A stretch of 64,000 nucleotides of DNA from Nemertoderma westbladi. Its lineage: Eukaryota; Animalia; Xenacoelomorpha. The position numbers and the translations under genes were made by a program. Below the pieces are notes generated by a model. It searched no databases and was not told the origin of the DNA. It saw nothing but the letters and a program-made list of their open reading frames with translations. Each line of letters begins with the position of its first letter. Positions within the stretch are counted from its first letter, which is position 1. Location of the stretch: assembly GCA_032718475.1 (NCBI GenBank), contig JAUCBJ010000816.1, positions 36,476 to 100,475 on the forward strand, written 5' to 3'. This document shows positions 10,478 to 50,960 of the stretch, in pieces.

Positions 10478-10753
10478 GGTTTTATAACTGTTTCTGATAT
10501 TTCAGACTGTAGAGAATACAGAATCAGTGAGTAGTTTACGTTTCAACTGTGGTATCTGACTCGCAAATTAATTTTTTCTCTAAATGATATATTAGTTAAG
10601 AATTTCATAAAATTGTTTAACCTTTTAATGGGTAAACTTTTAAACTGCAACACTGTAAAAGCTTTTGCGGATATAACAAGTCATTTTTGTCCGCAATTTA
10701 CTGTGTAAGTGTTTTAGCGGACATAACAAGCCATTTCCCCCGCAATGCGCAGT

Positions 10754-11907
10754 TGTTTGCGCTTTTGAAGACCTTTGACAGTTTAACCTGCCAAAATTAG
10801 AATGTCTTTTAGATGATATATATTCTTTAGCTTTATGACGAGTATTTGATACCCTACATTAGCCGAAGCCAGTCTATGCGCAATCATTCACCCGTTGGAT
10901 ATACCCGGGAGACTGAGTTCGGAGCTTAATGATTGATAGTGTAAGCCTACCGTATTATTCGACTGATCGTAATATATAATCTCTGACCAATATTATTCAC
11001 TTTCGGGAAATATTAACAGTTCCTTTTGGACGTGGCGCTCTAAATATGTAAACAGAGTTATGACTTAAACTAGACACAACGAAAAGGCTATAGATTAACG
11101 TATATGGCACATTCTTTAGGAGATGCTTTGTTATCAGTTACAATCATACACAATGCTGCACAATACTGCACACTAATCTGCCGACCTTCACTAAATTTGG
11201 TCACGTATAAAGAGAGCAACAGACAATTTATGTTGGGCATATGAAATAGCATTAGATTCACTTCAAACCACTTAACATACATAGGTCGCAATCGTTTATC
11301 TGTAACCGGTCTCTCTAACCTTTAGTATATCAAGAAGGTGGGGTGTCTGACTATTGATCAGTATTCCGATATAATATTTCATCAACAAATATAACGAATA
11401 ACCAACAGCAAAAGCAGTAATGTAAGATATGAATTGCATAGATATGTATGATAAGATTGTATGTAGGTAGGTCGATTTGATAACAGATATACGTTCTATA
11501 ATTAAGCCTACTAATGTAAAGCTAAAGAATGCTGATATACGTAGGTGCCAAAGGCCGATGTTCTTAGGCTCTAGCAAAAAACATAAACACTGAACTACTG
11601 AGTTTCTGTATACACCTCCAACACAGAGACAAAAAACGCTCTGATTGGTCAACCGAACAACGAGAGAACAAAGAAACAAAGAAACGTCGACGTGGCAATA
11701 TCAGCTGTTAGCCGTCGTCATGGTAGCGACACTGTTTTCAAGAGTATCTAGCTTATTGCGTCACGAGATTGCGGATTATGTTCTCTAAAGTACAAATACA
11801 ATACAAATACATAAGAAATGACTTTTATGTCCTCTAAAACACCAGTACAGCAAGGACACGGCCTTTTTAAGGGAAAATAACCGGTTAATGACGCAAAAGC
11901 TTTTACA
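10754..11907 (-). repeat. 3' LTR of the BEL/Pao element
   Basis: Near-identical to 28190-29318. On the minus strand it starts TGTAAAAGC directly after the purine tract. Confidence 0.95.
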
Positions 11908-11985
11908 CCGCTCCCAGAAAATGGGATTTAAGTCTATAAAATATAACAAATCACAGTTTCTAAAATATAAAAATACTCTAAACAG

Positions 11986-14900
11986 TTAGTCTTTCTTACG
12001 CGGACGGCGTTTACGCAGTTTTTTGAGGCTAGTAAGAGTCCTTTTCTCTTTGGGGCGAGCCACTTTACTAGGAGGGCTGTAACTCCTGGGTGAAGGGTGC
12101 AATACAATTGCATCAGAAGGTTTCGGATTGCGATCGGTATATCCGCCGGTCGAGGTACCTGGTTGATCGATATCAACTTCCGTGGAGCGAGGTCTAACAG
12201 CCTTTAGGGCGCGCCTCAGGACAGCAGCTCCTACGGGTCCTTGACGGGTTGTCTGGGCAATGGCGGTAGGCGGACCGTGGGTGGTAAGAAACTTCCTTGG
12301 TTTAATAGTTCTTTCCAGCTCGCGTTCTCGGGCTCGATATTCGTAGGGCCGTCGAGATACTTCCTGTAACTCAGGGTGCGAGTTGATAAATAAATCGCCA
12401 TACTCAGGGTCTTGACGGATATAATTGATCAAATGGTATGAAGTAATATCGTTAGGATTGACGTTCCTAAGGTATCTTCTAACAAATTTAGTGGAAATAC
12501 ACTCACCAACACGCTTCATTAGCTCGTAACTCGGTACGCGTGTTTTTTGTTCCACAGATGCTAATAAATAAGGATGGAACGCGTAAACTCCCTCGTAAGA
12601 GCGTCCAGGGTAGTATCGATGACGGGACTCACAATGTAAATCCGCGTTCGCTTCCCAAGCTCGAATGTAGCGCAGGGTAATCATTTCATCTACGCTCTCT
12701 AAATCGTGATTAAAGGGGCAATTATAACTGGCATGTCCTTTAAGTTGACAGTGGTGGCATTGAGTCATAAATTGGGGGCAGACTGCAAAAATATGAGAGT
12801 TATTAATTCTGCAATACTCACAATATATCTCCATCATTGGTTGTTCGTGGAAGTAGGAACAGGGTACGTCTGAGTCCATAGGAGTGAAATGGTCTCTCGA
12901 TGCGCATAATCGACAACGTTTTCGAGAAACATAGTTAGCGTGTCGATAATCGTATGCGGTGAGACATTGTGGACCTTGATACCACTCTAAGACGTAGTCG
13001 TTATCGCTGCTCCGGGGCGCTGTAGGTTGAATCGCTTCAGCTTCTAAGCATATTGGTTCGTCTTCCAATTGCATAGCTGAGGTAGGTGCGGCTGTCTCCG
13101 CAAGCGGACCCACTGTCTGAACTTCGACGACAGAATAACCCGTGGGTATTCGGGGTCTTTGTATAACAGATGAGTGCAAGTTCTGTATACAAACGTCCTG
13201 AAAAAGGGCAAATCCCGCGCTGTTTAGCTTCTCCGCCGCTGAGTCTCTCAGGCTGAGTTTGGTCAGAGCGCGGTCCTTGAACTGACTATCAACGTTACGG
13301 AACGGAGTCAGAAAGCGCCTGAAACATTCAAAGCGGATGAATTTATTGTGTTCATCTAGCTTGGCGAGTTTGGTTCCAAGTATTAAGGGATGGGCGCGTA
13401 TGGTACGACTGCACACATCGGCTAGCCAACCGGCAAGTGCTGCGTTTTCAAAGATCGTGTATATAGCTAAGGAGGGACGAAGCGGAACACTCATAAAGCT
13501 ATACACGGCGCCAGGTGCGGTCAATGGTCCATCAAAGTATAAACGAGAATAATGATCTCCGTATACTTGTTGGTAATTTATAGGATTTCCAACCTTGAAA
13601 TTCCATCCGTATTCTTGAAAGGCAAGATGTCCGATGGAGGTTCGTTGTACTTTGGTAATTCCGCTGGGTGTATTGGCATACATAGTGCGGAAGAAACCTC
13701 GGCCTTCTGCCCAAGGAGCAATCAGCTGAGTATCAACGAAGGGGTATGGAATGTTCTCCATATTCCGAAAGTCGTTCTGTAGGTCTCCATAAACAGCTGA
13801 GCCGATTTTAAGGATTCCTTCGTTAAACAGCATCTCGAGCACGGGTTGGGGTAACATCGATCCATCGATACCCATGGCCGGCTTGCGCTCGGTGTCGGTG
13901 ACGTAACGCTGCGCGAGTTCAAATTGTCCATGTCGGAGTTTCTTTTGTATCTCAGTAAGAGTTTCAAAAGAATAATCAATAACGTCGGAACACGCTCGAG
14001 TAAATACGTGGGTAGAACCAGCGAGTCCTCGTATGTGTATCATCCGCGTAGTTCCAAGTTCTCCAACCGGAACGCTACCTTCGTTATCGTAAGTGACAAC
14101 TCCATACATCTCGATAACGTTAAGAGTTTCGTTCCACTCTTTAGTGGCGTTTTCGAGTGTCATTCCCACAGGATGCCACAAGGTAGCACATTCGCTAGCA
14201 TTAGGCAGGTCTTTATACTTTAAATATTGTGTGGTATGTGTTTCCTCATCTCCATATCGTTGTATTCTTTCCTCCTCGAATAACACATCAAGATTCCAGT
14301 GCACTAAACGAGTTTTGATGAATCCATCAAGATTATATGGAGGTATTGTTTCTTTCTCTATTCTGGAAACATTATATGGTTTTCGAAACGAGTTTACTTT
14401 AACTAACTGATCCAGATGTTTCTGCAGTTGTTCGAGTTCGACAAGATCGAGAGGATTTATTAACGGTAGAAACTTCAGACTATGTGTAGGATCTTCCGGT
14501 TTTACCATGTAATATTGTTTGAGATTGACGTAATAAGGGTGATCTTTGATACCATAAAACGAGTCCGGTAAAGGTCTAGCGCGTATGTTTACATCGTGTA
14601 CCATACGACGGACAAGATCTGCTCTATTGTCCGGAGGTTCAACGAGTATACCATCGACACGAGCGGGTTCGATGGGCGGACGCTGCAACAGAGGAGCGTC
14701 GGCGATAAGATCGCGAGATCTTAGGTTGATATCAACCGGTTGGGGTTGTGCCGTCGCAAAAAGTTTGTCTCCGAAATGGGGAACCATCGAGGGATGAAGA
14801 ATGGTTTTAGAGTAGAGATCCGTCATAAGGATTTGCGCTTCGGGTTGAGCTAAAGCCGCTTCTTCTCTCTCATCCAGTTCTATATGTCTCTCCTCGAGCT

Positions 14901-16239
14901 GATTCTCCTCCGCTTGTTGTTGTAGACGCTCATCTAGAAACTCTTGCAAAGAGTAGGTTCGTCCACGTTCGATGTCCTCCTCGAGATTTTGTATTTCTCT
15001 ATCGAACTGGGGTAAAGCTAATTCCTTCACCGCTCGGACTTGTTGCTGCAATTTACGCTTCTCCAAACAATCGTACGTTCCCTTTCCGATTTTCTGCCGA
15101 ATAGCGTCTAATGCATTTCGTACAACGCTCTCTTCGACTTCCGTAACGGGTTGGATAGAGGTGAAGCCGGGACGGTTGTATGGGTTAAACGTTGATATTA
15201 GATGACCACGTCCCAATCCAGCTAGGTAGGGTTGGCGAATGTCTCGTGAGCCTACTACCGGAGTGCCACCGATCAACTGTTCGGGTAACACTAGATCTTT
15301 GAACAGTGAGTACAGTTCGGGAGGATCCGTGATACTATTAGGGTCAAGAGTTTGAGGTCTAACTGAGGAATGCGGAGGTCTGACCGAGTATTCCGGAACT
15401 CTGATCATCGGTTTGTTCAAGGATCGCTTGAGTCGAGCGACCGCAGGGGACACATCGAACAGGTTTCGCTCGAAACTCCCGTAAGTATATCGTGTAAAAC
15501 TGTGTTTAGCGCAACGTCTCCGCGGATGTTTATGTCTTTCCGTTTGCTGATTGGGTCTAGGGCATTCGTCGCAGTAATACCAAAGACGCATGTCCTGCAG
15601 AGGAAACGCGGGTGATCGTTCTCCAGTTTTACAATATTCCTCCATCTGTTCGAAGCTATCTGGGACAACAGGTAGCGGTCGATCAGCGGTAAGATACATC
15701 ATAGTAAAATAGAGTCGTTTGAGTTCTATCATAGGATCATGATGTATACCTTGAGGATATCGAGTTTCGAGATTTTGTTGACTGGCAATATTGAGGTATG
15801 TTTCTCTCAAGAATTCCAGATAATCGTTGAAGTCGTTGCGTTTATCCGGTTCTTCAACGTCTTCTCTTTCGAGTCGGTTTCGAATAGAGTTCTCGTGTTC
15901 TATTCTTGGCTTATCGTTCCGATTCCGTTGGGTATGATATTTAAATAAAACCATTTCCCTTTCGGTATCCACATCGTCCGTATCGTGTAAATCGATAGGG
16001 TGGCCGGTAGTTAAGAAGTCCATATACGTACCATTACGATGCGTATAGCGAGCGGTGAACTTTCTATAGTCCAATTCACGCGTAAGTTGCTCCGGGGACA
16101 TTGGCGGTTCGATATAACGACCATCATCCTCCGTAGTAGTTGGACCAGCGTCGCCGCGTATCAAGCTATCGACAAACGCTTGTAAAGGTAGAGTATATCG
16201 CTCCCTGATGCCAAGATCATCTTCTATCAACTCAGTCAT
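11986..16239 (-). CDS. Accessory 1417-aa protein: DEDDy-like 3'-5' exonuclease domain + CCHC zinc knuckles + basic (NLS-like) C-terminus
   Basis: Uninterrupted ORF. ExoI-like VVTYDNEG (D718/E720), ExoII-like ILKIGSAVYGDL (D819), PFVDTQ, ExoIII-like PLRPSLAIYTIFEN (Y927/E931). CRLC..H, CEYCx5Hx4C and CHHCx4Hx4C at aa ~1109-1174. Tail KKLRKRRPRKKD. A homolog lies at 59960-61802. Confidence 0.85.
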   Translation of the reverse strand: MTELIEDDLGIRERYTLPLQAFVDSLIRGDAGPTTTEDDGRYIEPPMSPEQLTRELDYRKFTARYTHRNGTYMDFLTTGHPIDLHDTDDVDTEREMVLFKYHTQRNRNDKPRIEHENSIRNRLEREDVEEPDKRNDFNDYLEFLRETYLNIASQQNLETRYPQGIHHDPMIELKRLYFTMMYLTADRPLPVVPDSFEQMEEYCKTGERSPAFPLQDMRLWYYCDECPRPNQQTERHKHPRRRCAKHSFTRYTYGSFERNLFDVSPAVARLKRSLNKPMIRVPEYSVRPPHSSVRPQTLDPNSITDPPELYSLFKDLVLPEQLIGGTPVVGSRDIRQPYLAGLGRGHLISTFNPYNRPGFTSIQPVTEVEESVVRNALDAIRQKIGKGTYDCLEKRKLQQQVRAVKELALPQFDREIQNLEEDIERGRTYSLQEFLDERLQQQAEENQLEERHIELDEREEAALAQPEAQILMTDLYSKTILHPSMVPHFGDKLFATAQPQPVDINLRSRDLIADAPLLQRPPIEPARVDGILVEPPDNRADLVRRMVHDVNIRARPLPDSFYGIKDHPYYVNLKQYYMVKPEDPTHSLKFLPLINPLDLVELEQLQKHLDQLVKVNSFRKPYNVSRIEKETIPPYNLDGFIKTRLVHWNLDVLFEEERIQRYGDEETHTTQYLKYKDLPNASECATLWHPVGMTLENATKEWNETLNVIEMYGVVTYDNEGSVPVGELGTTRMIHIRGLAGSTHVFTRACSDVIDYSFETLTEIQKKLRHGQFELAQRYVTDTERKPAMGIDGSMLPQPVLEMLFNEGILKIGSAVYGDLQNDFRNMENIPYPFVDTQLIAPWAEGRGFFRTMYANTPSGITKVQRTSIGHLAFQEYGWNFKVGNPINYQQVYGDHYSRLYFDGPLTAPGAVYSFMSVPLRPSLAIYTIFENAALAGWLADVCSRTIRAHPLILGTKLAKLDEHNKFIRFECFRRFLTPFRNVDSQFKDRALTKLSLRDSAAEKLNSAGFALFQDVCIQNLHSSVIQRPRIPTGYSVVEVQTVGPLAETAAPTSAMQLEDEPICLEAEAIQPTAPRSSDNDYVLEWYQGPQCLTAYDYRHANYVSRKRCRLCASRDHFTPMDSDVPCSYFHEQPMMEIYCEYCRINNSHIFAVCPQFMTQCHHCQLKGHASYNCPFNHDLESVDEMITLRYIRAWEANADLHCESRHRYYPGRSYEGVYAFHPYLLASVEQKTRVPSYELMKRVGECISTKFVRRYLRNVNPNDITSYHLINYIRQDPEYGDLFINSHPELQEVSRRPYEYRARERELERTIKPRKFLTTHGPPTAIAQTTRQGPVGAAVLRRALKAVRPRSTEVDIDQPGTSTGGYTDRNPKPSDAIVLHPSPRSYSPPSKVARPKEKRTLTSLKKLRKRRPRKKD

Positions 16240-17059
16240 ATCTGCTATAAGTTTATCAATATTATAATGAGTTTATATATATTAGGCTAGCGGGCGTCGC
16301 TGCCTACCCCTCTTTTGCCCCCGGACAGTGTAAGATCCTCAGCGCCGATGTACCGTCGTCGCTGTGCTTTCGCCAACGATGTAGCTACACAACGACAACG
16401 ATAACCGGCACAAATCACTTAACTGTCCGTCCCAAAGGCTTAGATGTACTGCAGGTTCTTCTTGGAGAGTTAGGGTTACTTTCACAATTGCGACTCGCTA
16501 CTGTAAACACACCTTAGTAGTAACATTCACCTACAAACGCACAAATTCAACACAACTGCAACAAACTGCACACATTCAGGCCATTTGTCCGTTAGTCAGT
16601 ACCTTCCAGAATGTCAATGTATTTATTATGTATCCTTGGATACTAGCAGTGCGCTATTTATTCCCTATGCTATTCAATGGGGCATGCTTTCTATTGTTCT
16701 TTTAACTCACTTCTAATTCTAGCGTGGTAGTTGCCATGGTGACATTATGGAAAGCTAGCGGTAGAATTAGGGTAATTCTCATGCATACAGATCTGGGATG
16801 CTATTTAATAGTAATTCTTTAATTGTCAATATCCTCTCTATATATGATTTTATGAATTTTATCGGCTATTGACTATGCATTGGAGATTCTCGCACACAAA
16901 TACACTTAATAGAGTGAATCTCCGCTCCCATGATCTATTAATTAATGGAATTTTGGGAATGTTATAAATTGTACAAAATGACAATTTATTAAATTCATTT
17001 AAAGTATGAATTTAAATTTATTCCCGTGAATTTTATTATTTGATGTTAAATAGACACAA

Positions 17060-17326
17060 TTTTATTCCAGAACGTGTCTGGGGACTGGGATCCTTGATTC
17101 TAGGAATTTTGTCCTTTTAAGAGTATCGGTAAGTGCTACGATATCTTAATCGACTAGAATTTTAAAGGATCTGATATTTGACAGATTTTTGTAAATATTA
17201 ATAATTAATATTTAGGATGGGCACCAGTTTATTCCAGAACTTGTCTGGGGACGTTAACCACTGATTCTAGAAATTTGTCTTTCAAGTATATCGGTGGGTG
17301 CCGCGATATCTTAATCGACTAGAATT
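17060..17326. repeat. ~100-bp direct repeat x2 in the pol-accessory spacer
   Basis: TTTATTCCAGAAC.TGTCTGGGGAC...CGATATCTTAATCGACTAGAATT at ~17060-17161 and ~17228-17326. Confidence 0.8.
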
Positions 17327-17879
17327 ACAGATGGTCAAAGGGTTTAACAGATTTATTTTGCGTTATACGCTACTGTTAAAGGGACATCACGCTACTATAT
17401 GTATTATTTAATATACGGTATGAGAGCAATATCGCACGAAGCAATGTCAGTGTGAAGAGGCAAGTCGTTTCCAAGGTCTACCCAGAGCTTGGTTTAGCCG
17501 AGACACGAGGATCTGAACTTTGCATTCCTAATACTCTGCCTACCAATAATACTTGAATATAGTAGTGGCTTCATTGTACTTTAATAAGTACGAAGATTTC
17601 ATCTTACTGTAGTCACGTATTGATAATGTAATACGGGCAGTAAGGAAAGAGAAAAAGAATTATTTCTCGCCGTCGCACTAAATATATAATATACGTAATT
17701 AAATAATAAACGCGAATATATATTGCACTAATCTACTAAATAATCTCTAAAATACCATACTACTAAATAAAATTAAATAAAACGATTAAAATAAAATTAC
17801 ATAATAATACATACATAAATATAAAAATAAAACAAATACAAATATAAAGTAATATGGTCACACACCCACTCCAGCCATT

Positions 17880-20800
17880 TTAAGTTGGGGAGTCCCTAGA
17901 TGTTTGTTGGATTAGGGAGGTGGTCGTGGGAAGAGTATCTTGTCTCCCATAGTTTCCGGAGAGTTCTCTGTCTCTTTCCAGTAAACATAAACGTCCCACC
18001 GGGCGATTGAGCTGCTGCGTCTCGAAGACAATTCCCGGTTTCTTGAAGTTACGTCGCATGACGACGAGTTCTACCGATCGCACCAAACCGTGATCCGAGA
18101 TATGCGTCTCGATTATACGACCTGTCTGCCACCGCTTACGTGGAAGATCCACATCCACAATAAGCACCATGTCTCCGGCGCTGACGTTTTCTTGCTGCGC
18201 AAACCACTTAGTTCGAAGTTGTAGCGTGGGCAGATAATGTTTTTCGAAATGGTCAGCGAAACGACGGGATAACAACTGCATGAGTTGCCAAGTTTGTCGG
18301 CAGTATTCGTCTCCATCTGTGATTTCCGATTGTGGGAGCATGGCTACAGGTTTCTTCAGTAGGAAGTGCGCGGGTGTTAGCGCTTCCAGGGAATCGGGAC
18401 TCGATGAGACTGGCATAAGCGGTCTCTCATTGAGATAGGCGGCGATTTCTTCCATTAACGTCCGCAAAAGTTCGTCGGTGAGATAAGCGCGGCAAGGCAC
18501 TATAAAATGAAATGCTGTCTTCACGCTTCTTATTAATCTCTCCCAACTTCCTCCCCACCAAGGGGCGTCGGCGGCGTTGAAGGTCCAACTAGACGCTGTT
18601 ACTCGTAGTTGGTCGTCCACCTGTCTTTGGTTCCAATCTTTGACGTAAGCTTTGATTTCATTGTTGGCACCAATGAAGTTTGTTCCCTTATCAGATCTCA
18701 TCGTGTTACTAGTGCCAAAGCGAGCGATCTGTCGTCGTAAGCTTAATAGAAAGCTGTTGGTAGATAAATCGTTCACCATATCGAGATGGATGGCTCTACA
18801 AGTCATACAAACAAAGATTACAGATTAAAGATTAGTAAAGGGTGGTTCATAAAAGCTTACTCGTTCCCTAGGTAATTCTGCCTCTCTCTGTGTTAAAGGC
18901 CTACTGAATGCTTTCCTACAGGGTATACAGTTCCTAAGAACTTGGTTCAGAGCTCTACGGGGTTTATAAAAATAATAGCGAGTTCGAATTTCGCTAAGAA
19001 CTCGTTCTCTACCAGCATGATAAAGTTTGCTGTGAACATCTACAATCATCTTGACTTGTATTTCAAGATTTCTAATGAGTATGGGGAACTTAGTATCAAA
19101 GGATAATGGGGCGTTCGTTAATCTTCCTCCAACACGTATCAACCCATCTATCATTGTGCTAGAGAAACGATCCCTTAGGCGCATCTGTGGATTTCTCAAC
19201 AACAGGAAATACTTATCGGAATCTTCATAGCATTGTAAGAGTCTTAGCAACTGTTTGTTGGTTTCTTCATGCTCCTGATAACTGATCTTCTCCTTCAGAA
19301 ACTTGTCGGGTACCTTATATTTAGGGAGATCTTTAATAACATGGACCTGCACTGATATGATTGGAGCGGTATCACCCTTTGTTTTCATCCCAGAGTAGTG
19401 ATGGTGAAAACATCTCTTTAAATATGTAACGGCCTTACAGAGCCGATTCCAAGAACTGTAGTGATGTATCGCTCTCTGCAGGAGAGGTGAGAGTCCTTGC
19501 GAGATGTCAGGTATGCCAGATTTCCAATCCTTATCACGGATTTCCACAACGAGTTTATTTGTGGCTGTGGGTTTCTGATCCAAAGCTTCGTCTCCGGAAG
19601 TATGTAGTACAGACAGATCTACTGTGGGTTTGAATAACTTCGATTTACTCGCCTGAGTTTTAGGTTTGACTTTCTCCGCTCCCTTGGCCTGTCTAATTTC
19701 TGCTGTAGTAAGATGAGGAGGCCATTCTTCTTCTTCTTTGTAAAGGAAGTCGGGTCCAACTAACCAGTCTGGAGTATCTACCAGTTCTTGTGGAGTTGCT
19801 CCCCTGGAAGCGATGTCCGCTGGATTAATCGTTCCGGGGCAATGTCTCCATTGATCCATCGTCGTGCGACTGAGTATAATAGCTACTCTGTTGGTAACGA
19901 AGACGCTGAACTGACAGACTTCATTGGTTATATACTCCAACACGAGTAAAGCGTCGGTCCAATAGACAGTTTTCTCCAGAGGATAGTCGATCTGTTCTGT
20001 TACATTCCGGCCGATGGCTGTAGCGTATAGAGCCGCTTTTAACTCCGCTCGAGGAACTTTCAACTTGTTGTTTATTAATGCCTTAGAGGTAACCAAGGCG
20101 ACTTTAATTCCGTCCGGAGTTTCCACCCTTAGGTAGGCTACTATACCTATTCCCATATCGATGGCTTCTCCAAACACATGGAGTTGATATGAATACGTAG
20201 GGAGAACATGACCAAAGTATGAACGGGAAATTATGAAGTTTTCGATGGCTGGTAGAGAATCTTCCCATTTCATCCACTTCTTTAATAATTCTCCCTTAAG
20301 TGGATCGTCCCATGAGTGGTTTTCAAGCCACATTTGTTGTACTAAACTCCGAGCAATTAATATAACTGGGCTAATAAATCCCAATGGGTCGAAATAAGTG
20401 CTCAGGATACTTAAACATATCCGTTTAGTCCGAACTGGATTATCTCGCTGTTTTAGTTGGAAAAACAGGATATCTCTTTCTGTGTCCCATTTCAAACCAA
20501 GGGTCTTAGTTTCTGGGAGATCATCCTTTATTAGATCTAGGTCTTTTGTTCCTCGATCTTCTACCGGTATCGACTCCAGAAACTCACGGGAGTTGCTGGT
20601 GAATTTAGTTAATCGAAATCCACCTTTCTTTAAGCATTCTACCGTTCCCTTTGCGACCTCAATGGCTTCTTCGACTGATGGAAAGGACTTCAGATTATCG
20701 TCCATGTAGATGTCTCGTTTAATATTGTCGATCACTTCTTTAGAGAAGGTGTCTCGGTTGTCATCCGCAGTGGTGCGTACCACGGAACAGGCGTTTGAAG

Positions 20801-23800
20801 GGCTCGAGATTATCCCAAAGGCTTGGATGGTCATCCAGTACTCCACCGGTTTCTTATTGAGGTCTCCTTCAGGCCACCACAAAAATCGTAGACTATCTCG
20901 ATCCCTATCCAGCGCTTTGACTTGTAAGAACATGCCTTCTATATCTGAGGCGAAAGCAATGGAGTATTGTCTTAACCTTAATAATATTCCCAACAAGGAT
21001 TGGAGTAAGTTGGGTCCGGGCAACAATTCAGAATTAAGGGATTGGCCCATATAGAGGGCGGAGCCGTCGAACACCACTCGTACTTCATGGGGTTTACCGG
21101 GTTTGGGAACGTAATGGTGAGTTAAATAATACGTTCTCTCAGTTATAGGAGTTTCTTCCGGTACTAGCTCCGCATATCCCTTGCTAATAAACTTCTTCAA
21201 CTGTGTTTTATACATTTCTTTAGCTGAAGAATTTGCCGTAAGGCGTCGATGTAGTTGAGCAATTCTTTTCTCTGCCAAAGGTCTGTTGTTAATGAACTTT
21301 GGTTCTCGCTTTCGGAAAGGAAGTCCGATCTCATACCTACCTTGATCTTTAAGAAAACGAGTAGTTGTCGCTTGGATCTGCTTGGCTCTTTCTTCCTCCA
21401 CCGATAGGGCCTTATCGTAGGAGTTGGGCTCTACGACCTCTTGAGTAAAGAATCTCACGGCGTGTTCATCCCGAGTCTTGGCATTATAACGTTCAATGAC
21501 GTCATTAAGCTCGTCGTTATAGTCGTCTCGCTCAGATGGGTGAAGGAGTTGACATAAGTTCACTTGATTTTGCCAAGTCTCGCTTTCCTTAAGGAGATCG
21601 ATGGCATTCTCCTCATCAAAAAGTTGATGTATATCGTCGTTGTCTGAGGAGTATGGAGTTCCCTCAGTTGGATCGTCGAACTCACTGTTCTCAACTTCCC
21701 ATTCTCGCGCTTGGTATACCTGCTCTTTAGGTAATCTTTCCATTAGAGTTCTACGGGAAGGGCCAGTAAAGTACCAACCTACTCTAGTTCTTCCCGCATA
21801 AACTTGTAGAGGTTGCGGTTGAGCAGGTCGTTTCTCTAATGTCTCGAGCGCTTCATGCGCATTTTGACCGATGAGTATTTGCACTCCAGGATAATCTGTC
21901 TGGAATCGAGGTATCTTAAGATGTTGGATGCTCTCATCCTCGTCCCAATTATAAAGGTCTGCTTGAGTAGTAGCGAAGTTCTTTATAGCCACCATTTTCA
22001 CTGACCTTATGCTATGTTCTCCTAGTTCGTCCTGGGGGGTGGACAACGCACCTACATAATAATCTGCTGTTACTGTGGATTTCCAAACTTGCATAATTCC
22101 TGACATGTTTAGCTTAGTTCGGAACTTGGGTTGTCCATCGAATATGTCTTCGGCTAGCTCTTTGTCGATGAATGTTCCTGTACTACCGGAATCAAGGAGG
22201 GCGTTCACTACATAACTCCTTTTTGGTCCGTGGACCCTTACCTGTACCACAGGAAATTCTCTAATCCCTACATTGGAAGTTGGCGCTTTCCAAGATGGTT
22301 GTCGATCAGAAGTAGTTAGAGCGAGGTCAATGTCTGTTTCTTTTTCATAAATGAGTGCTCGATACACTGTGGTATTTATCATGTAACAGGATTCGTTTTC
22401 GTCGGAGAACTCGTCCGTATAGAATCCTTCCATCTCAGATTGATCAGTGTCGTTCACATCACTGAATTGGACATGTAATTCGGAATCACTTACCTGACTC
22501 GGACTATTTCGCTCGAATTCAGTGTGCAACAAGATATGATGTTTCGCACTGCACTTGGTACATCTTGTGTCAGAGTAACAGGTTCGCCGTTGGTGTCCAT
22601 GTCTGAGGCAATTATAACACAACCGCTTGTTCCACATGACTTCACGTCTCTCAGTTAATGATTTCTTTAGAAATTCATCACACATATTTAAGCGATGGGT
22701 CCCATCACATAGCGCACATTTCGGTTTGATGTTACTTACCTTACTCTGAGTAACATTGTGTACACTTGTTTTTTCTTCGGGCTTTCTCACCTGAATTCTC
22801 TTGGGAGACGTAGGAGGAGTTTTTCTTACCTGTTCTCTCCTGTCATTTGTTCGAGACTTGAATTTACTTACCTGATCTTTAGGCATTTTATTTACGTAAT
22901 AAGATCTATCAGTGTCTTTCCCGCTATCTTCTCCTTGAGAAGTCTGGCTTTCGCCATCATCTGTATAACACACTGGTGTTACCTTTCTCCGAGCGACGGG
23001 TTTTTCACTTACCTTGTTTTCCGGTGTCTTCTCTCTGGACAATTTCAGGAGCTGTAATTTCACTTCTCCATCTAGGAATGACATGAGATCAGCCATGGTA
23101 GGGTCTCGTCGTTGTTGTTCCATCATATATAGCACTTTCTTATCCCAGCGTGTACCTACTCCACCCTTCGGTAAAGTAGAAGCCACTGCTCTAATAACCA
23201 TAGCATTCTGATACTCATGAGACTTACCTAGCCAATCTAATTGTCTGCAGATCTCCTGAATCTCATCGGAAAACTCTATAATTCCGCTGCTAATAAACTT
23301 TCGGGGCGCTACCAACTTTGCATACAAATACCCAGCTATATTATTCCTATTACCATACCTGATGTTTAGTGTATCCCAAACTTGTCTTAATCCGTCTGGA
23401 TGTCCAATAAACTTTAACGCCATTAACTTGGGAGATCCTTCCAAGCACTCGATGAGGAATCTAAGTTTCTCTCCATTAGATAGCACAGAGTTCTGTATGT
23501 TATCTTTGTAATATTCATTAAAAGGTAACCATTTCATCTCATCTCCATTGAACTTGACGATCTCTCCCACCTTTACTGCTTGCCGGGCTTCGGTTCTAGC
23601 CATTTGACGCGTAAAACTTTCTTGGGCCATCGTGTTATTTAATATCGAGTTATCGGTATATAAATTTCTCGGATTATGATCCGGTCTATAGGGAATATCA
23701 TTATCAACAGGTCTATAATTACCCTTAATAGGGTTCACTATAGGAGTTTCTACTTCGCTAGCAGTATAGATGCGTGTAGGCTCCACACCTTGCGCATGAG

Positions 23801-26000
23801 ATACTTCAGACCTAACAGGTTGACACATGGTTACAGGGGGTGGTGGTATACCCTTTTGTGCATTTACTAATTTATCGCGTTCTAGCGCGATACTTTGCTG
23901 CACTTCTTGCAACTCTAGCCTACTTTCCCTTACTGTGCCCTTGAATTGCTGAACGGTCTCCTGCATCTGTCCGAGCAGGAGATCCATCCCCCGTCGTCTC
24001 TCATCCACCCATTCAACCGCCGAAGCGGGATTCGCCAACATTGTAGCGGGCGGACGAGGGACAACGGGCGACAAATCATGGATATTTCGCTCGGAGTCCA
24101 GGGCATGAACTGTCTCACGGACTGTTCTGCTGGGCACAGGTAGCTTAGTGCTGTGCAAAGGGAATTGAGAGGTAGGTTCAGGGAGTACAGGTGTCTCTAC
24201 GACCGAAAGGGTGGCTTCGGGAACAGACCTAACTATTTCGGGCTCATCTACTATAGTAGGGAGTCTCTCTATTGTAATTATTTGGTCTGTGGGTTCTGTA
24301 CTACCTAAGTTGGTGTTATTTAGTTGCCTTCTAACAGCTGGAGGCAAATCAGGCAATTTTTGACGGTGGGATGTTCTTTTACGTCTGCTTAGGCGAGATC
24401 GATTTCCTCCGCCTTCAGTGTCGGTGGTATCGCCTTCCTCAGATGATGTATAACCCTGTCTTTTGGGAGTAGATCGATTCATCATCTGCATATTACTAGC
24501 TGTTAACTGTTTATTAAAGTTGTCTTGTCTCTCTTGAAGATTTTCCAACTCTAGTTGGGCAGTCTCTTCAGACGCCTTTCATTCTGCTTCTGCCACTGCA
24601 GCTGCCAAAGCCGCCTTTCTTTCTGCTTCTGCCACTGCAGCTGCCAAGGCCGCTTTTCTTTCTACCTCTGCCACTGCCGCCTTTCTTTCTGCTTCTGCCA
24701 CTGCTGCTGCCGCTGCTTTTCTTTCTGCTTCTGCCACTGCAGCTGCCAAGGCTGCTTTTCTTTCTGCCTCTGCCACTGCCGCTTTTCTTTCTGCTTCTGC
24801 CACTGCTGCTGCCGCTGCTGCTATCTTTCTGTCTTCTATACGTTTTTTCTTTACTTGTTCTTCTTGAACCTTAGTGATGTGGATGCTTTCATCAAATTTA
24901 GCTTGGTTCGCAGCTCTCATATCCACATCGATGGCGTCCAACACACGCTGGGCTCCTTCACTATTAGGGCTAAGTCCGTCCAACCTTCTCCTCAACTCTT
25001 CATCACCTACGAAACGCTGATAGTCTGACAGATAGATGTCAATGGCATCCCTCTTATGCGGTTTCTCTGCCGTCGCTTCACTTTCCACTTGGGAAAAAGT
25101 AGCGTCTGTTGATTCTCCATGGGTTGAGCGCTCCTCCAGCTGAGCTTTCCACTGAGCTGTTCCTTGAACCTGGCGACTCACCCGTTGAAACCAAGTCTTT
25201 ACGGCAACTTGCAACGACGTGTCTTGTCTTCTTTTAGAAGCCTCCTCAAAGGCCGATAAGATTAGCCTAATTCGCAGAATTCTTTCTCTAACTTGATAAA
25301 GCAGTTGTCCCTGCTCTTGAGGTCCTTGAGGTTGTTGAAACAGTTGTTTTTCTACTCGCTCCATAGAGCTGAAGAATCCTTGTGCGTATCCGGCTGCGGA
25401 CCTCTTCCATACAGCTGGATCGATGGTTTCCTTGGCTACTCCCATCCGGTGTATGTCTTCCCAGGCAGCTTCTGATAAATCAAACGGGAGTCCGGGTCCG
25501 GGGAAGTTCCATTGCGACTCGACCATAGACTTCAGTTCTTCCCTTGTGTATCCCTCATAACTATCTTTAGTTGATTGCTTACTTCTCGCCCAATCGATCT
25601 GGTGTTCTTCCACCGCGATCAATAACCTAGTGAGTACGGCTGCAGGAAGGATGAGAAGGGGATCCGAATAAACCGCATCCGTCATCTTTGCTCCGCGCTC
25701 GGGTGTCAGTTCTACAGTATCTTCACTACTGGAGCTGTCGGGCCGCTGAGAAATAAGTTCTTGGCTCGCGGGTTGTTGCTGTTCCGCTGCTTCTTGGTCC
25801 CGCTTGACCTGAGCTCGAGTGCCTATGATAGACCTACGATGTTGGACCAGCCTAGGTTCTGTTATTACTACTGGAGGGATGACCTTCCTCACAGTGGGAG
25901 GTGAACTGAACTTAGGACTAGACGGTTCTACACCTCTATCTGAGTCGCAGATAGTTACATCTAATAAACTGTCTGACAGGTTCTGCTTAGTATCAGACAT
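17880..26000 (-). pseudogene. BEL/Pao gag-pol polyprotein in one reading frame with two disruptions
   Basis: ORFs 24579-26000, 18825-24548 and 17880-18806 share one frame. Gag CALCDGTH..C / CYNCLRHGH..C / CTKCSAKHHILLH, protease ALLDSGS, RT YMDD, RNase H LHVFGEA..WTDA..NPADIASRG, integrase H..H..CIPC, SDKGTNF, WWGGSWERL. In-frame TGA at 24579-24581; stop plus deletion at ~18825. Confidence 0.95.
24582..24825 (-). repeat. Coding tandem repeat (AAAVAEAERKA)n in the Gag N-terminal extension
   Basis: About six Ala-rich, coiled-coil-like units of 30-42 bp. Confidence 0.9.
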
Positions 26001-27344
26001 GTTTGTTTACACAGTTGAATGTCTACTGCTATTACAGTCTAAGTAAGTCTAGTAATTCAGTATTAACTGCTAGCCTAGTAATTAATTACCGATACTGCTA
26101 CTCAGTGTAGCGTGATATATAATATATTAGTATACCGGTATGCTTATAGTATATATAAGTATTATTACAGACTAGTTTATCACAGAATACCGGTAGGTAA
26201 TTTTAGCACAAATATATATAAATATATAATAGGCCTATCGTGGATACCGGTATGCAGTTTACACTTATAGTATATATAATACAAGTATAATTATTAACTA
26301 GAATTAATTACAGAATACCGGTATGATTTCAGCTTAAGTTTATAAAAATAAATATAATAAGCCTATTGGAAATACCGGTATGTCAATTATTTTAGAATAA
26401 TTGAATTTCTGAATTTTAAGGGTTACTTGGTTACTTTAACTTACTTTATTACCGTTATTTAAGCAGTAGTCCAACTGATATTGAGACCTAATTGTGGTAT
26501 GGCAGGCCTACTATTTATAAATCGTTTGAGTTGATTTATAATATATATATACCCGTTTAATGGGTTTTGTCAATGTTTGAAATAAATGTTATTATTTCTG
26601 GGGGAGTCACTACACAAAGTTGTGTGCTCTCAGTGGAGTGCTACTTGTTAGACACTAAAACAAATAATTCTAATTTACCTAAGTTACTTAATACTACAAA
26701 TTACGTACAATTCGGGTTGAGATTACAATCTCTAAATAAACACAAAAATTTAATTACAAATACACAAATACAAATTTTTAGGGTAATTTTACAAGAAGTC
26801 TACTAACCAGCCTAACAAAGGGTTAGAATATCTGGTTATTACAACGGACAGGTTACTACGGTATTTGAAAATAATAAGTAGTAGTAAATATACTGCGTTG
26901 TCCAGATAGGAAAATACCACCGCCTGACGACCTATAACCGTATCGCTATAGGTACTACGTTATGTATCACGGAGTGTCCCTACCTAGAAGTTAATTACCG
27001 CGGTCTACCAGAACCAACGTGCCTATTAACCACTTTACAACACAAATACACTACCTACACACTAATTGCTTTCGGAAAGCACTGTACACTAAACCCTAAA
27101 TTAGGTACAAGTACTTGTACAACAATAATTAGTAGTTAAAAATACTTGAACAGCTAAAAGAACCACGGCATCTGCTGGAGTGACCGGTGCACAAAATCAC
27201 CAGTCTTTACCTACGCCGAGCAGCCCGTATAGTACCGGGGTTAGTTTAACTATAACGGTATGTATAACAAACACAATTACTGTAGGAATAAACTTGGGGA
27301 ATATGAATGTTGCGAATAATCGCATAAACTCTGAATAATAAATA

Positions 27345-27850
27345 TTACGCTACGCGTACAAACCATTCAAACAAAGTGCAGACCAAATACTGACAGACTA
27401 CTATCAAGCCTAAACAAACTACGGTATATGTAGACTCCGAAATGGTTAAGTAGTATGCGTTCTAACCCAGTAGTACGACTTATTCTTTAGATGGGGGTTT
27501 ACCTTACAGCAATGGCTGCCCCTACTTCCTAACCGTTCTTTATCGGACAGATGCTTTACACACACCGAAATTTCCTCAAACCCAACAGCAGCCAGACAAC
27601 TATCCAGCCTACAAATTATCTAAATAAAATTATACGCTACCCGTACAGACTACACAAACAAAGTACAGACCAAACGCCGGCGGATTCCTATCAGGCCTAA
27701 ATAAACCACAGGACATGCAGACTCCGAAATGGTTAAGTAGTATGCGTTCTAACCCAGTAGTACGACTTATTCTTTAGATGGGGGTTTACCTTACAGCAAT
27801 GGCTGCCCCTACTTCCTAACCGTTCTTTATCGGACATACACTCTACATGC
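27345..27850. repeat. ~287-bp direct repeat x2 in the 5' leader of the BEL element
   Basis: AGACTCCGAAATGGTTAAG...CTTTATCGGACA is almost identical at 27432-27549 and 27719-27837; the flanks are more diverged. Confidence 0.9.
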
Positions 27851-28178
27851 ACTGCAATCCGTTCAGACCTAATCAACAGTTAGCCAACAGTCAAGCCTAC
27901 AAATTATCTGTACAATCTGAACAGGCTTACACGCCTTCTGCTCAATACTGGCCTACAAATAAATAAAACTGACAGAAATAAGTAAGCTCCAAAAGAAACA
28001 AGGGGTGTACAGTCCCTAATCTCTTAAACAGCCTACCGGTATACAATACCACAATCGAATAATACTGCTGTACCTGTACTACTGTAGGTACCGGTCCGGA
28101 TGATCAGGCAGTCAGGCCTACTGGTTACCGGTCGACCGGTACTTTCTACTAGATTGCTTACACCGCAATCCAGAAGCA

Positions 28179-28189
28179 ATATCTGTTAT
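28179..28189 (-). other. Non-tRNA primer-binding-site candidate (ATAACAGATAT)
   Basis: Abuts the CA end of the 5' LTR, has no TGG, and is the exact reverse complement of minus-strand LTR nt 28926-28916. Confidence 0.65.
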
Positions 28190-29318
28190 TGATTGCGCTT
28201 TTGAAGACCTTTGACAGTTTAACCTGCCAAAATTAGAATGTCTTTTAGATGATATATATTCTTTAGCTTTATGACGAGTATTTGATACACTACATTAGCC
28301 GAAGCCAGTCTATGCGCAATCATTCACCCGTTGGATATACCCGGGAGACTGAGTTCGGAGCTTAATGATTGATAGTGTAAGCCTACCGTATTATTCGACT
28401 GATCGTAATATATAATCTCTGACCAATATTATTCACTTTCGGGAAATATTAACAGTTCCTTTTGGACGTGGCGCTCTAAATATGTAAACAGAGTTATGAC
28501 TTAAACTAGACACAACGAAAAGGCTATAGATTAACGTATATGGCACATTCTTTAGGAGATGCTTTGTTATCAGTTACAATCATACACAATGCTGCACAAT
28601 ACTGCACACTAATCTGCCGACCTTCACTAAATTTGGTCACGTATAAAGAGAGCAACAGACAATTTATGTTGGGCATATGAAATAGCATTAGATTCACTTC
28701 AAACCACTTAACATACATAGGTCGCAATCGTTTATCTGTAACCGGTCTCTCTAACCTTTAGTATATCAAGAAGGTGGGGTGTCTGACTATTGATCAGTAT
28801 TCCGATATAATATTTCATCAACAAATATAACGAATAACCAACAGCAAAAGCAGTAATGTAAGATATGAATTGCATAGATATGTATGATAAGATTGTATGT
28901 AGGTAGGTCGATTTGATAACAGATATACGTTCTATAATTAAGCCTACTAATGTAAAGCTAAAGAATGCTGATATACGTAGGTGCCAAAGGCCGATGTTCT
29001 TAGGCTCTAGCAAAAAACATAAACACTGAACTACTGAGTTTCTGTATACACCTCCAACACAGAGACAAAAAACGCTCTGATTGGTCAACCGAACAACGAG
29101 AGAACAAAGAAACAAAGAAACGTCAGTATCTAGCTTATCGCGTCACGAGATTGCGGATTATGTCCTCTAAAGTACAAATACAATACAAATACATAAGAAA
29201 TGACTTTTATGTCCTCTAAAACACCAGTACAGCAAGGACACAGCCTTTTTATGCCTAGCAAACCAACTACAGAGTACTTTAAGGGAAAATAACCGTTAAT
29301 GACGCAAAAGCTTTTACA
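28190..29318 (-). repeat. 5' LTR of the BEL/Pao element
   Basis: TG...CA ends, CCAAT box (plus-strand CTGATTGG at ~29077), near-identical to 10754-11907. Confidence 0.95.
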
Positions 29319-30375
29319 GCAGTATAGGTGCTTTAGCGGACATAACAAGCCATTTTTACCGCAATGCGCTTAATACTCTAAATAGATTGTAGTTCAGATG
29401 ACGAAATCTGTCAGCTGATTTACTGTTGATGTGGAACTTCTTTGTTCAGCTCGCTCAGCCAATCAGAGCGATTTTCATTTTATCTTGCACAGAGGCCTAC
29501 GGAAAACCGGGCAATGCATTACGGTCTTTGTTTACCTTTCTGAGCGAGAACAACTGCTTGGAAATTCTTCTGTACTTCTGTGTTGGAAGTTTCAGACTTT
29601 GACCTAAACATCAGAAACATCAGATGGCTTTGATTACAAGAACGTAAAACTATTAACGCGGCACTACGCAACGCGATTCAACTACCGCATCACACCGCAA
29701 TTCATGCATTGCTGCACATGGAACACTGCATAAGTAACACATACTGACTGTTCACTGCATTATATTACTTCTGTTATTAATTATTATGTTGGTGTATATT
29801 GCTGATATATTTGGAGAATACCGATGAATAATCATAAAACCCCCAATCTTCTTGATTACTAAAGGTTAGAGGAACAGGTTTACCGGTAGCAACTGCGACT
29901 TACATTATAGTGGTTTTTGTGTGAATTGAATGCTATTTCATAATCCCTACATGTGTCAGTTGCTATCCTCCTTATATATGATCAAATTCAGTGACGGTCG
30001 GCAGATCAGTGCGCAGTAGTGTGAAGTAGTGTGAAGGTTAATAAAGCATCTCCTAAAGAATGCGCTTTTTACGAAACTCAGTAGCCATCCAGTTGTGACT
30101 TAAAGCGCCACGTCCTAAAGGAACTGTTAATATTTCCCCGAAAGTAAATATATTGTCAGAGATTATATATCAACGATCAATCGAATAATACAGTAGGTCT
30201 ATACTGCAATCACTATCAAAGCATCCGAATCCAGTCTCCCTTAACTGTGGGTGAATGGTCTCGCACAGGCTGGCTTCGGCTGATGTAACTTCAGTACATT
30301 AAATAATTGATATACAAAAAGACAACTAAAATTGGCAGGTTAAACTGCAAAAGGTCTAAAAGCGCGAACAAATAC

Positions 30376-43958: not shown

Positions 43959-45184
43959 CTGCAAGTAATTAATTACATTTTCATTATAATCCAGTTAATG
44001 ACAAAATTATATGTGTATTCCCTGAAACACTTACTCCCAATGGCAACATACACAACCCACGGAAGTCATTATTTATATCAGCATAGTAAGATACTACAGT
44101 ATGAATAATTAGTCTTATTTTCTCTGGGATTAACTGGCGAGCAAGCGTGCCAACAAGGTCAATGGTAAGCTTTAATACAACAAAATTGATATAAATTTAT
44201 AAGTCTGGCAGTTATATATTACTATAAAGCAGTTTACAGGAAGTACAGTACCAATTCCCATAGAAGTTAACTAACTCCAACTATATGCTCATCATTATCA
44301 GCCGTAATATTCGCTCCATGGTTCTTCTTCTTTTGCGATTAATTACTGGTTACTAGTTACTGGTTACTGGTTACTGGTTATTAATTACCTTAGATACATT
44401 AACGGTATCTTCCAAACCACTATCAACACGAATCTGGACAAGATGGGCAGATAAAATTCTATAATCTTGCATTTCACAAGTGACTGGGAATTTCCCTGTC
44501 TTACAGAAGACCCACTTACCAACCATCAATCATCAACATCAATCAGGTAAGTTTGGATTATGGTCATTTAAGCTTACTTTGATAGTAACAATGTGTTGGC
44601 AAGACCCCTGGATGGCTTCCTATAATCAGCTTACTTTGGAAATACCAGGGTTAGTTGCAAATAGTGAAAAATATCTCAAAGTTAAAAAATAATTCATGAG
44701 GTTATACACAAGTTACTGTAAAAGCTTTTGCGGACATAACAAGTCATTTTTACGCAATGCGCAGAATACTCTAAAATAGCCCTAAAATTATCCCGGACGG
44801 GAAGGAATTAGAACCCAGATGACGAAATCTGTCAGCTGATTCTCTGTGTACAGTGGAAGTTCTTTGTTCTGTCGTATTCAGCCAATCAGAGCAATTTTCA
44901 CTTTATGGCTAACAGAAACCTATGGAAACTCGCGCAATGCATTACGGTCTTTGTTTACTATTTTCTGAGAATCAGAACCAACTCAGGATTCTGTGCTTCT
45001 GTACGGAAGTTTCAGACTTTGGCCAGGCAACATCAGATGGCTTTGGTTATAAGAACGTAAATCTATTAACCCTGAAACACCACCTTGTCATCCAACCTTA
45101 TTTCATACTCAATTCATTTACATAAGTGAATATAAGTGGATATAAGTGAAATAAGTAAACCCTGTTGTAAACCCTAACCATAAA

Positions 45185-47092
45185 ATGTCACTAAATTCGT
45201 GTTATACTGATACTATTAATATTCTACATAGCTGTACATCAAAATTTATTCCTCAAAAAAGGGGTAATTCAATCTCCAATTGCATTCCTGGCTGGAATGA
45301 GTTTGTAAAAGAAAAGCGGGCTGCGGCGCAGGAGGCTTTTCATATTTGGTGCGATCAAGGGCGGCCTAGGTTTGGGCTTGTATGGGAGGTAAAGAAAAAA
45401 ACGGCCGCGCAATTTAAATTGGCTCTCCGAAATTGCAAACGGGAGGAAGGTGCTTTGCGAGCAGATCGCCTAGCGGCTTCTTTTATTAACTCCAGAAAAG
45501 ATTTTTGGAGTTCAATAAAGAAAGCAACAACTATTAAAATGGGTTTAGCAACCTCTGTCGGCTCCGCCCACACTGAGGAAGAAATAGCCGATTTATTCAA
45601 ATCTAATTATTATGATATTTTTAATTCAGTCCCTGTATCTGAAATTGACTCTACTTTTGTGCAGTGTAAGTTTTCTGAATGGGACGGCTCCAATAATGTC
45701 CATATTTCTGCTGATAAGGTGAAAGATGCCATCAACGGTCTGCAGTGTGGAAAGGCTGCCGGGCCTGATGGCATCTTCCCTGAAAGTTATATTTTTGGCG
45801 GTAACCTTTTGCCAGTAATTTTGTGTTTATTGTTCAATTCATTTATAACTCATGGGTTTTTGCCTCAATCGTTAATTAATTCTAGTTTGTTGCCTATTAT
45901 CAAAGATAAAAACGCTAGTATGAGTGAACGTTTGAATTACCGACCCATAGCCAAAGCTACAGCTGGCTCTAAGGTTTTGGAAACGTGTTTGCTTCGGCTC
46001 GTTGCCATGCATTCCAATATATCTGACAACCAGTTTGGTTTTGCAGAGGGCCTAGGTACAGAAATGTGTATTTTTGCCTTAAAACAAACAATTCACTTAT
46101 ATATTAGTAAAGACTCACCTGTGTATACTGCCTTCTTAGACGCCTCGAAAGCGTTTGACCGCGTCAATCATAGTAAACTTTTTCGAAAGCTAATTGAACT
46201 TGGTGTATCTATTGGTATTGTAAGACTCTTGGCCTTTTGGTATTCCCATCAACTAATTTATATTAGCTGGGGTTCTGCTTCTTCCGGTGCATTTTTGGTT
46301 TCAAATGGTGTCCGTCAAGGAAGTTTGCTCAGCCCCCTCTTATTTAACATTTATATGAATGACTTAAGTGTAGAACTCAACAAATCTAATGTTGGTTGTA
46401 AAGTTGGAAAGAGTCTTTTAAATCACTTATTCTACGCAGATGACCTGTGTTTACTGTCGCCGAGTATTTTTGGGTTACGTGCACTAGTCAAGATATGTGA
46501 GCGTTACGGCGCTAAATTTGATATTTTGTTCAATCCACTCAAATCACACTGTTTGTATTTTATGCCCTATCGTTTTCACCGTGCAGGCGACATCTATCTC
46601 AATGGAAAACCGTTAGACTGTGTTAAGCAGGTTTCTTACTTGGGACACATTATAAGCTGTGACCTTTCTGATGAAGCAGACATAAATAAAATTAAATCTT
46701 CTTTATTTTGTCGAGGTAATTTGTTAGTTAGAAATTTCTCTCGGTGTTCTCTTGGTGTTAAACTATGTTTGTTCAAAACTTATTGCTACAGTTTATATTG
46801 CAGCTCTTTGTGGTCTATTTTCCGTGTTCAAACTTTGCGACAAGTGAAAGTAGCCTATAACATGTGTTTTCGTCTGTTGTTTAAATACTCCCGCAGTGAC
46901 GATGCAGACACAATTTTTGTTAATAATAGAGTAAATACCTTTAAGGCCATTATGCGCAAATCTATATTTTCCTTGTTAAATAGAGTAAATAACTCAGGTA
47001 ATACGCTAATTGGTGCTATTATAACTAATTTTTCAGTGAACTCTGTTCTGAAGGATCGGTGGCACAAGGTGCTTGATCCAAGTTTAACGTAA
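45185..47092 (+). CDS. LINE ORF2 reverse transcriptase, 5'-truncated (no endonuclease)
   Basis: IPGWN, KAAGPDGI, NYRPI, NQFGF, FLDASKAFDRV, GVRQGSLLSPLLF, FYADD, YLG. Confidence 0.9.
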   Translation: MSLNSCYTDTINILHSCTSKFIPQKRGNSISNCIPGWNEFVKEKRAAAQEAFHIWCDQGRPRFGLVWEVKKKTAAQFKLALRNCKREEGALRADRLAASFINSRKDFWSSIKKATTIKMGLATSVGSAHTEEEIADLFKSNYYDIFNSVPVSEIDSTFVQCKFSEWDGSNNVHISADKVKDAINGLQCGKAAGPDGIFPESYIFGGNLLPVILCLLFNSFITHGFLPQSLINSSLLPIIKDKNASMSERLNYRPIAKATAGSKVLETCLLRLVAMHSNISDNQFGFAEGLGTEMCIFALKQTIHLYISKDSPVYTAFLDASKAFDRVNHSKLFRKLIELGVSIGIVRLLAFWYSHQLIYISWGSASSGAFLVSNGVRQGSLLSPLLFNIYMNDLSVELNKSNVGCKVGKSLLNHLFYADDLCLLSPSIFGLRALVKICERYGAKFDILFNPLKSHCLYFMPYRFHRAGDIYLNGKPLDCVKQVSYLGHIISCDLSDEADINKIKSSLFCRGNLLVRNFSRCSLGVKLCLFKTYCYSLYCSSLWSIFRVQTLRQVKVAYNMCFRLLFKYSRSDDADTIFVNNRVNTFKAIMRKSIFSLLNRVNNSGNTLIGAIITNFSVNSVLKDRWHKVLDPSLT

Positions 47093-47260
47093 TTATCGTA
47101 TTCGGAATACATTGTTAAATTTCCTTTATTTTCGTATTTGGTGTAATTCTACTTTAATGTGCTGTATTTCTCAAATTTAGTTTAGTTAGTTCTGCCTTGT
47201 ATGTACAATGGATCGTTTGTGTCCGAGATTATAAATAAATAAATAAATAAATAAATAAAT
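45185..47260 (+). mobile_element. 5'-truncated LINE (RTEX-like) with an intact RT frame and (TAAA)n tail
   Basis: 635-aa ORF followed by a short 3' UTR and AAAT repeats at 47233-47260. Inserted in solo LTR B. Clade assignment is tentative. Confidence 0.88.
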
Positions 47261-50900: not shown

Positions 50901-50960
50901 TGTAATAATCTAATATTGGGGCGGCTTTCTCTCGGTAATTGGTAAAGGCTAAAGTCGATT
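47907..50960. mobile_element. ~3-kb non-coding insertion in solo LTR B (probable DNA-transposon derivative or composite)
   Basis: Absent from the equivalent position of solo LTR A (~30298-30310). Begins near TA|CACTAGGTGGG and has repeated ATCGAATGGGGGTA motifs. No matching right TIR was found. Confidence 0.5.
49367..49428 (-). other. tRNA-like (A box/B box) fragment
   Basis: Minus strand reads TAGTCTAGTGGTT...CGCGGGTTCGAAATCC. No convincing acceptor stem, so probably a SINE head or pseudo-tRNA. Confidence 0.4.

Follow-up and report, generated by a model that had tools for sequence, protein, structure and literature searches.

A BEL/Pao retrotransposon without a tRNA primer site that likely self-primes from its own LTR

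Background

Self-priming of reverse transcription has been shown for Tf1, in which, according to the passages on priming in PMC7175516 and PMC4600332, the first 11 bases pair and RNase H cuts between bases 11 and 12. The Tf1 and Tf2 elements of Schizosaccharomyces pombe, Tj1 and, more broadly, the Tf1/sushi group of Ty3/gypsy are described as lacking a tRNA site, and the 11 nt after the 5' LTR are complementary to the LTR, as in the element reported here. From the same kind of evidence (at least 10 bp of LTR complementarity, 0–5 bp after the LTR), self-priming has been predicted for Tcn1 chromoviruses and for the TAR lineage (Houba, Osr-1) of Ty1/copia (PMC6317226). These are plant and fungal gypsy and copia elements, not BEL/Pao, and the passages that deal with them mention no intron-split primer.

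In contrast, the ICTV profile of Belpaoviridae (PMC8742986) describes elements that are primed by a host tRNA and whose replication is poorly understood; their primer site is 18 nt long and fits tRNA-Arg or tRNA-Gly, and their genomes measure 4.2–10 kb. The tRNA primer site is descriptive in this profile, and membership rests on pol. In the titles and abstract openings that were searched, we found no report of self-priming in BEL/Pao, and the literature search for an intron-split primer gave no match. The terms PBS and tRNA are absent from the main text of four BEL/Pao papers (PMC6238403, PMC8556966, PMC554778 and PMC3118150), whose supplements may give primer sites.

Architecture of the element

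The window (the whole 64-kb stretch of DNA that was analysed) contains a BEL/Pao LTR retrotransposon on the minus strand at 10754-29318, with a span of 18.6 kb:

28190..29318, minus strand: 5' LTR, 1129 nt, TGT...TCA, matching the 3' LTR
24579..26006, minus strand: first gag-region frame, 475 aa, without a Pfam family, its stop in frame with the next frame
18825..24578, minus strand: gag-pol frame, 1917 aa, with DUF1759, Pao peptidase A17 (Peptidase_A17) and integrase zinc finger (Integrase_H2C2), its stop in frame with the next frame
17880..18824, minus strand: integrase C-terminal frame with DUF5641 (Pfam)
11908..11916, minus strand: polypurine-tract-like GGGAGCGG, preceding the 3' LTR
10754..11907, minus strand: 3' LTR, 1154 nt, TGT...ACA

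The stops that split gag-pol lie at 24579-24581 and 18825-18827. Pao-type pol and gag domains are present in the order PR-RT-RH-IN, and the LTR pair is accompanied by the polypurine tract and by a target duplication of 5 bp (ACTGC) that lies outside the two LTRs. The best 120 of 1241 protein matches are all Pao-type, at about 40% identity. On this domain content the element is a BEL/Pao member by its pol, for which the databases hold no close relatives, and it is outside the Tf1/sushi group, the pol being that of BEL/Pao and not of a Ty3/gypsy chromovirus.

Like the Belpaoviridae of the ICTV profile (PMC8742986), the element has the order Gag, protease, RT, RNase H and integrase, LTRs within 0.2–1.2 kb and a polypurine tract. 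However, it differs from them in having no tRNA site, in its length of about twice the ICTV range and in a nuclease-like ORF. The primer site of 18 nt that the profile gives for tRNA-Arg or tRNA-Gly is absent, and no TGG follows the LTR in the element or in contigs of its family.

Within the 2.2-kb leader there is a tandem duplication of 287 nt (27340-27872). Where the 5' and 3' LTRs diverge, they do so almost entirely in their first 200 nt (29120-29318 against 11690-11907), which also contain three larger indels; beyond this part only 2 positions differ. ARAGORN found no tRNA gene in the 64-kb window.

The primer slot and its complement in the LTR

Three short features are central to the priming question:

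28179..28189, minus strand: primer-binding slot ATAACAGATAT, without TGG, adjoining the LTR directly
28916..28926, minus strand: ATATCTGTTAT, exact complement of the slot and predicted self-primer, LTR nt 393-403
11480..11490, minus strand: identical copy of the 11-mer in the 3' LTR, by sequence match

A sequence-only reading of this DNA had stated that the slot, instead of TGG, comes right after the 5' LTR and that the stretch at 28926-28916 is exactly complementary to it, with pairing that ends at 11 nt, and both statements hold in the letters. The 11/11 match at offset 0 falls within the published screen for self-primers (at least 10 bp, 0–5 bp after the LTR, as worded in the relevant passage of PMC6317226). 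It is contiguous, without a canonical splice junction, and 726 nt separate the LTR site from the LTR end.

In order to estimate chance, the LTR was shuffled with dinucleotides preserved, and the 11-mer was present in 47 of 20,000 shuffles (84 of 20,000 with offsets 0–3). When the rule used for the relatives described below (offsets 0–4) was applied to the element, its score was reached by 9 of 1000 shuffles. For comparison, 643 of 125,722 11-mers of the window (0.5%) have a complement in the preceding 1129 nt, and inside the element the number is 10 of 17,426. From the above, the 11-nt match is modestly above chance, unusual for one element but not decisive.

Eight RNA folds were compared. The 11-bp duplex between slot and LTR has an energy of -10.5 kcal/mol, and the helix has high probability in one of the eight folds (RNA from 28926 to 28140), 0.13 in another and 0 in the other six, so that this modelling settles nothing about the helix. 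The fold features near the LTR end are as follows:

28209..28232, minus strand: predicted hairpin of U5, close to the end of the LTR, its core kept in both solo LTRs (30334, 50986)
28151..28171, minus strand: predicted hairpin within the leader, at 18 nt from the LTR end; its two arms change in other copies

A stem between the U5 end and the leader (28191-28197 with 28164-28170) had also been suggested, and this did not survive: its pairing probability is 0 in all eight folds, and it needs base 28192, at which the 3' LTR and nearly all family contigs carry another letter. The hairpin lying wholly within the leader (28171-28151) appears to be the better-supported structure in these models, and changes at 28151/28152 and 28170/28171 occur on one contig and in the depth tables.

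It could be argued that the pairing was selected for a structural role of the RNA, in packaging, dimerisation or the control of translation or splicing, or arose here by chance, and that priming happens otherwise. The 0.5% background of similar matches in the window and the unstable folds speak for such a view, but the paired segment always begins 0–4 nt after the LTR end, the place that a primer requires, and there is no tRNA site; we regard this explanation as improbable.

Other copies of the family and the related solo LTRs

Part of the stretch is contained in 5 of 7 public runs, and four of them (X1, X3, X4 and X5, from four studies, with one run under a second organism label) were compared as contigs. 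The family is highly repeated, with 12,396 X1 contigs matching the stretch. Copies with a normal TGG primer site, which would speak for a defect of this copy, were looked for and none was present in the contigs of the four runs; in region 28120-28245 these contigs have neither a joint nor a TGG. A slot formed by deletion in this copy was thus rejected, there being no joints and a non-TGG slot family-wide.

Within the slot, no variant reaches 1% at nt 1–7 in the four runs, while nt 8 is altered in 34% (X1), 51% (X3) and 100% (X5) of the depth. Further changes, at nt 9–11, occur among the 20 loose ends (of 36) that were read, in one case behind an LTR end of very different sequence. This pattern bears on the idea that a tRNA half or another small RNA of the host primes through the invariant first 7–9 nt of the slot; priming by half-tRNAs is described for certain copia lineages (Osser, Bryco and Bianca; PMC6317226). 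The constancy of nt 1–7 across copies and two organism labels is in keeping with it, but the variation of nt 8–11 leaves 7 fixed bases and would not favour a fixed host RNA as primer, and the 11/11 match to the LTR is left without an account. The invariance of nt 1–7, even behind a different LTR end, could reflect some other constraint.

The LTR motifs of the family have no match in viral and metagenome contigs. Matches of one 20-mer (36 bacterial, 1 viral) were set aside as unrelated, being at most 24 nt long.

Two related solo LTRs, of types B and C (the LTR of the element being type A), are present in the window:

10654..30370 (10654-10748 + 29319-30370), plus strand: solo LTR B, host of the element's insertion; one mismatch in its target duplication; no primer site
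44717..51025, plus strand: solo LTR C; target duplication GTTAC; a LINE and a second insertion inside; no primer site

Both were considered as 5' LTRs and rejected, as they have target duplications and no internal region; therefore the window has one primer slot only. The equivalent sites first proposed in them (TCTGTTAT at ~29770 and TCTGTTT at ~47311) turned out to be misaligned: the homologous sites in the alignment are at 29646-29656 (B) and 45059-45069 (C), and the proposed ones lie ~120 nt further downstream. The homologous sites differ from the element at 4 (B) and 3 (C) of 11 positions. Together the two sites have both letters at position 4, matching the two letters of slot nt 8 (unphased), and letters that pair with slot changes at nt 8 and nt 10 are carried by B and C. 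They are also changed at positions 7 and 11, for which no slot variant in the contigs compensates. The slots that the B and C sites require were predicted beforehand, and none was found in the contigs, in which B-type LTR ends are hardly covered.

Similarity among the three LTR types stops one base past the 11-mer site (28915 and 29657), and contig joints cluster at the same two positions, in both LTR types. Such a break would fit a template-switch point, or merely a variable region. In solo LTR C, the LINE lies shortly after the homologous site (RT ORF 45155-47092, with a TAAA-repeat tail), and the second insertion is ~3 kb long. Elsewhere in the window there are remains of another LTR element, with RT and RNase H fragments, at 52639-56065 (minus strand), and a gag/aspartyl-protease fragment at 31379-32809 (plus strand).

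Distant BEL/Pao relatives

With an alignment of 39 RT/RNase H sequences as query, the best 80 of 537 metagenome loci were retrieved, and the repeat ends could be examined at 36 of the 80, the remainder having no repeat flanking pol, or a repeat due to overlap in the assembly or to duplication. Viral contigs, also searched with RT, contained no relative. An LTR end was called clear when a CA or TA was fixed by a second copy, which was the case at 14 loci (that of L066 was fixed by its sister L079). The 14 relatives form 13 lineages at 72% identity or less, and their RT/RNase H identity to the window element is 38–44%.

None of the 14 has a TGG after the LTR, and all of them pair with their own LTR over 10–15 nt at offsets 0–4. 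The offset window was enlarged from 0–3 to 0–4 after two misses, within the published 0–5, and L070 was added; at offsets 0–3, 11 of the first 13 relatives pair over 10–15 nt. For each relative the score was reached by 0–9 of 1000 shuffles. When slots and LTRs were swapped between relatives, the mean pairing was 5.4–5.5 nt, compared with 10.4 nt for the own spliced pairs. Inside the window element's own family, the changes of slot and LTR site are unphased and in part unmatched; between the relatives, the two differ together. For example, the slot and the contiguous LTR site change together in the sisters L080 and L067, the latter (with a doubtful end) matching over 12 nt.

Most of these pairings (12 of 14) form only across a predicted canonical GT-AG intron in the LTR, and the remaining two are contiguous. 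The donors of these introns read GTAAG or GTACG, and the acceptors are rich in pyrimidines. In ten spliced relatives that were measured, the acceptor is 93–223 nt from the LTR end. Both forms occur in the sisters L025 and L019, where the site is intron-split and contiguous, respectively. Representative cases on metagenome contigs are:

L003:6341-6759: primer site split by an intron, 15 nt
L070:6443-6840: primer site split by an intron, 15 nt
L025:2024-2424: primer site split by an intron, 11 nt
L019:1-300: intron-less sister, 11 nt

Loci with less certain ends gave a mixed result. Of 7 with doubtful repeat ends, 6 pair over at most 8 nt; one of these, L074, whose doubtful end is not CA, has a TGG one base past the repeat end. 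Four further loci match with an LTR end inferred by eye, which is weaker because the end was picked after looking. A strict scan of 11 loci with the LTR start alone known gave 3 matches (two repeat lineages already counted), with two more by eye; 24-nt rows of the scan are end-of-region artefacts and were ignored. At L068:1-320, a 12-nt contiguous LTR match lies by eye 6 nt past a possible LTR end, and it was not counted.

A midpoint-rooted FastTree phylogeny of 58 RT/RNase H sequences places the window element, on a long branch, within the group that contains most of the self-pairing lineages, and the supports for this nesting are 0.95 and 1.0. Priming by a host RNA fits these relatives poorly, as their 14 slots are unrelated to each other and each matches its own LTR, and we consider it the least probable of the explanations weighed here.

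Proposed priming mechanism

Taken together, the element likely self-primes in the manner of Tf1 from 28926-28916 of its own LTR, to which we assign a probability of about 0.68 on the sequence comparisons above. In the proposed mechanism, transcription would place 28926-28916 at the 5' end of the RNA or close to it, and this LTR stretch would fold back onto the slot. Cleavage on the 3' side of the paired stretch, for which the element's RNase H is the probable enzyme, would then give the primer. At the priming step the element thus likely works like Tf1, from which it differs in its BEL/Pao pol and in the 726-nt distance already given; a Tf1-like start and cut are predicted here. A further difference from Tf1 is that most of the BEL/Pao relatives have an intron-split site.

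Where relatives have the intron, splicing would assemble the primer, and the intron would have to be restored by copying from an unspliced 3' LTR. Copying a spliced 3' LTR would instead yield intron-less forms, such as L013, L019, L080 and perhaps the window element, whose contiguous site would match, without an intron, the site that splicing creates in most relatives. With moderate confidence, we suggest that a broad BEL/Pao lineage has abandoned tRNA priming, that most of its members splice an LTR intron for the primer, with the spliceosome gating reverse transcription, and that elements like this one are intron-less with the primer ready-made.

The site itself may be questioned. The family could self-prime from another LTR position, either an unfound splice junction or the following block, with the 11-mer at 28926 being partly chance:

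28450..28458, minus strand: rival pairing site, best-conserved LTR block; 6 bp with the slot of this copy, 8 bp + one G-U with the common nt-8 variant

This block is kept in all three LTR types and sits 260 nt from the LTR end, nearer the spacing of the relatives, and the site at 28926 is not intact in B and C. However, the block pairs over only 6 bp with the slot of this copy, while all 14 relatives pair over at least 10 nt, and a search of LTR types A, B and C found no junction of at least 10 nt with a good donor. We therefore rate a different position as unlikely, if less so than the two explanations without self-priming discussed above. Self-priming from the LTR as such, whichever site is used, is highly probable in our estimate.

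The proposal of tRNA-independent priming, as first made from the sequence, is thus upheld in part. Family-wide absence of TGG and the self-pairing of 14 of 14 relatives support it, whereas its arguments from the solo LTRs, the U5-leader stem and a link to the accessory nuclease (below) fell away.

If self-priming is real here, BEL/Pao would be the third superfamily with it, after the demonstration in Tf1 and the predictions in some gypsy and copia lineages in the sources cited. It would bear on the priority of tRNA priming versus self-priming, a question raised in the part of PMC3601003 that treats it, and would account for tRNA-based annotation failing on these elements. Moreover, self-pairing offers a simple rule for locating LTR ends, and the intron-split form would connect the onset of reverse transcription directly with splicing by the host.

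The accessory ORF

Between pol and the 3' LTR, the element has one more large frame:

11986..16272, minus strand: accessory ORF, 1428 aa, after pol, with a DEDDy-type 3'-5' exonuclease-like domain and three CCHC knuckles

The ORF likely encodes a DEDDy-type exonuclease with zinc knuckles. The atlas lead is PF01612 (score 0.92), and Pfam gave no match on the ORF. Among 1.84 billion representatives there are 2 distant relatives at 30% identity, a word search found no homologue, no solved structure matched, and the predicted fold is unusable (pLDDT 34). An exonuclease is also found in some Cer elements of C. elegans.

In the bdelloid LTR elements Juno and Vesta, and in Athena, pol is likewise followed by an additional ORF (ORF3), in which a DEDDy-like domain is combined with Cys-His motifs (PMC5408684). 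They belong to other lineages, and the DEDDy assignment in the window element serves as a lead only.

A link of this nuclease to priming had been considered possible. However, the distance from RT/RNase H to the 3' LTR is 1.8–2.2 kb in the 14 relatives, compared with 8.0 kb in the window element, which leaves them no room for the accessory ORF. Because these relatives self-pair all the same, the accessory nuclease is dispensable for the primer signature.
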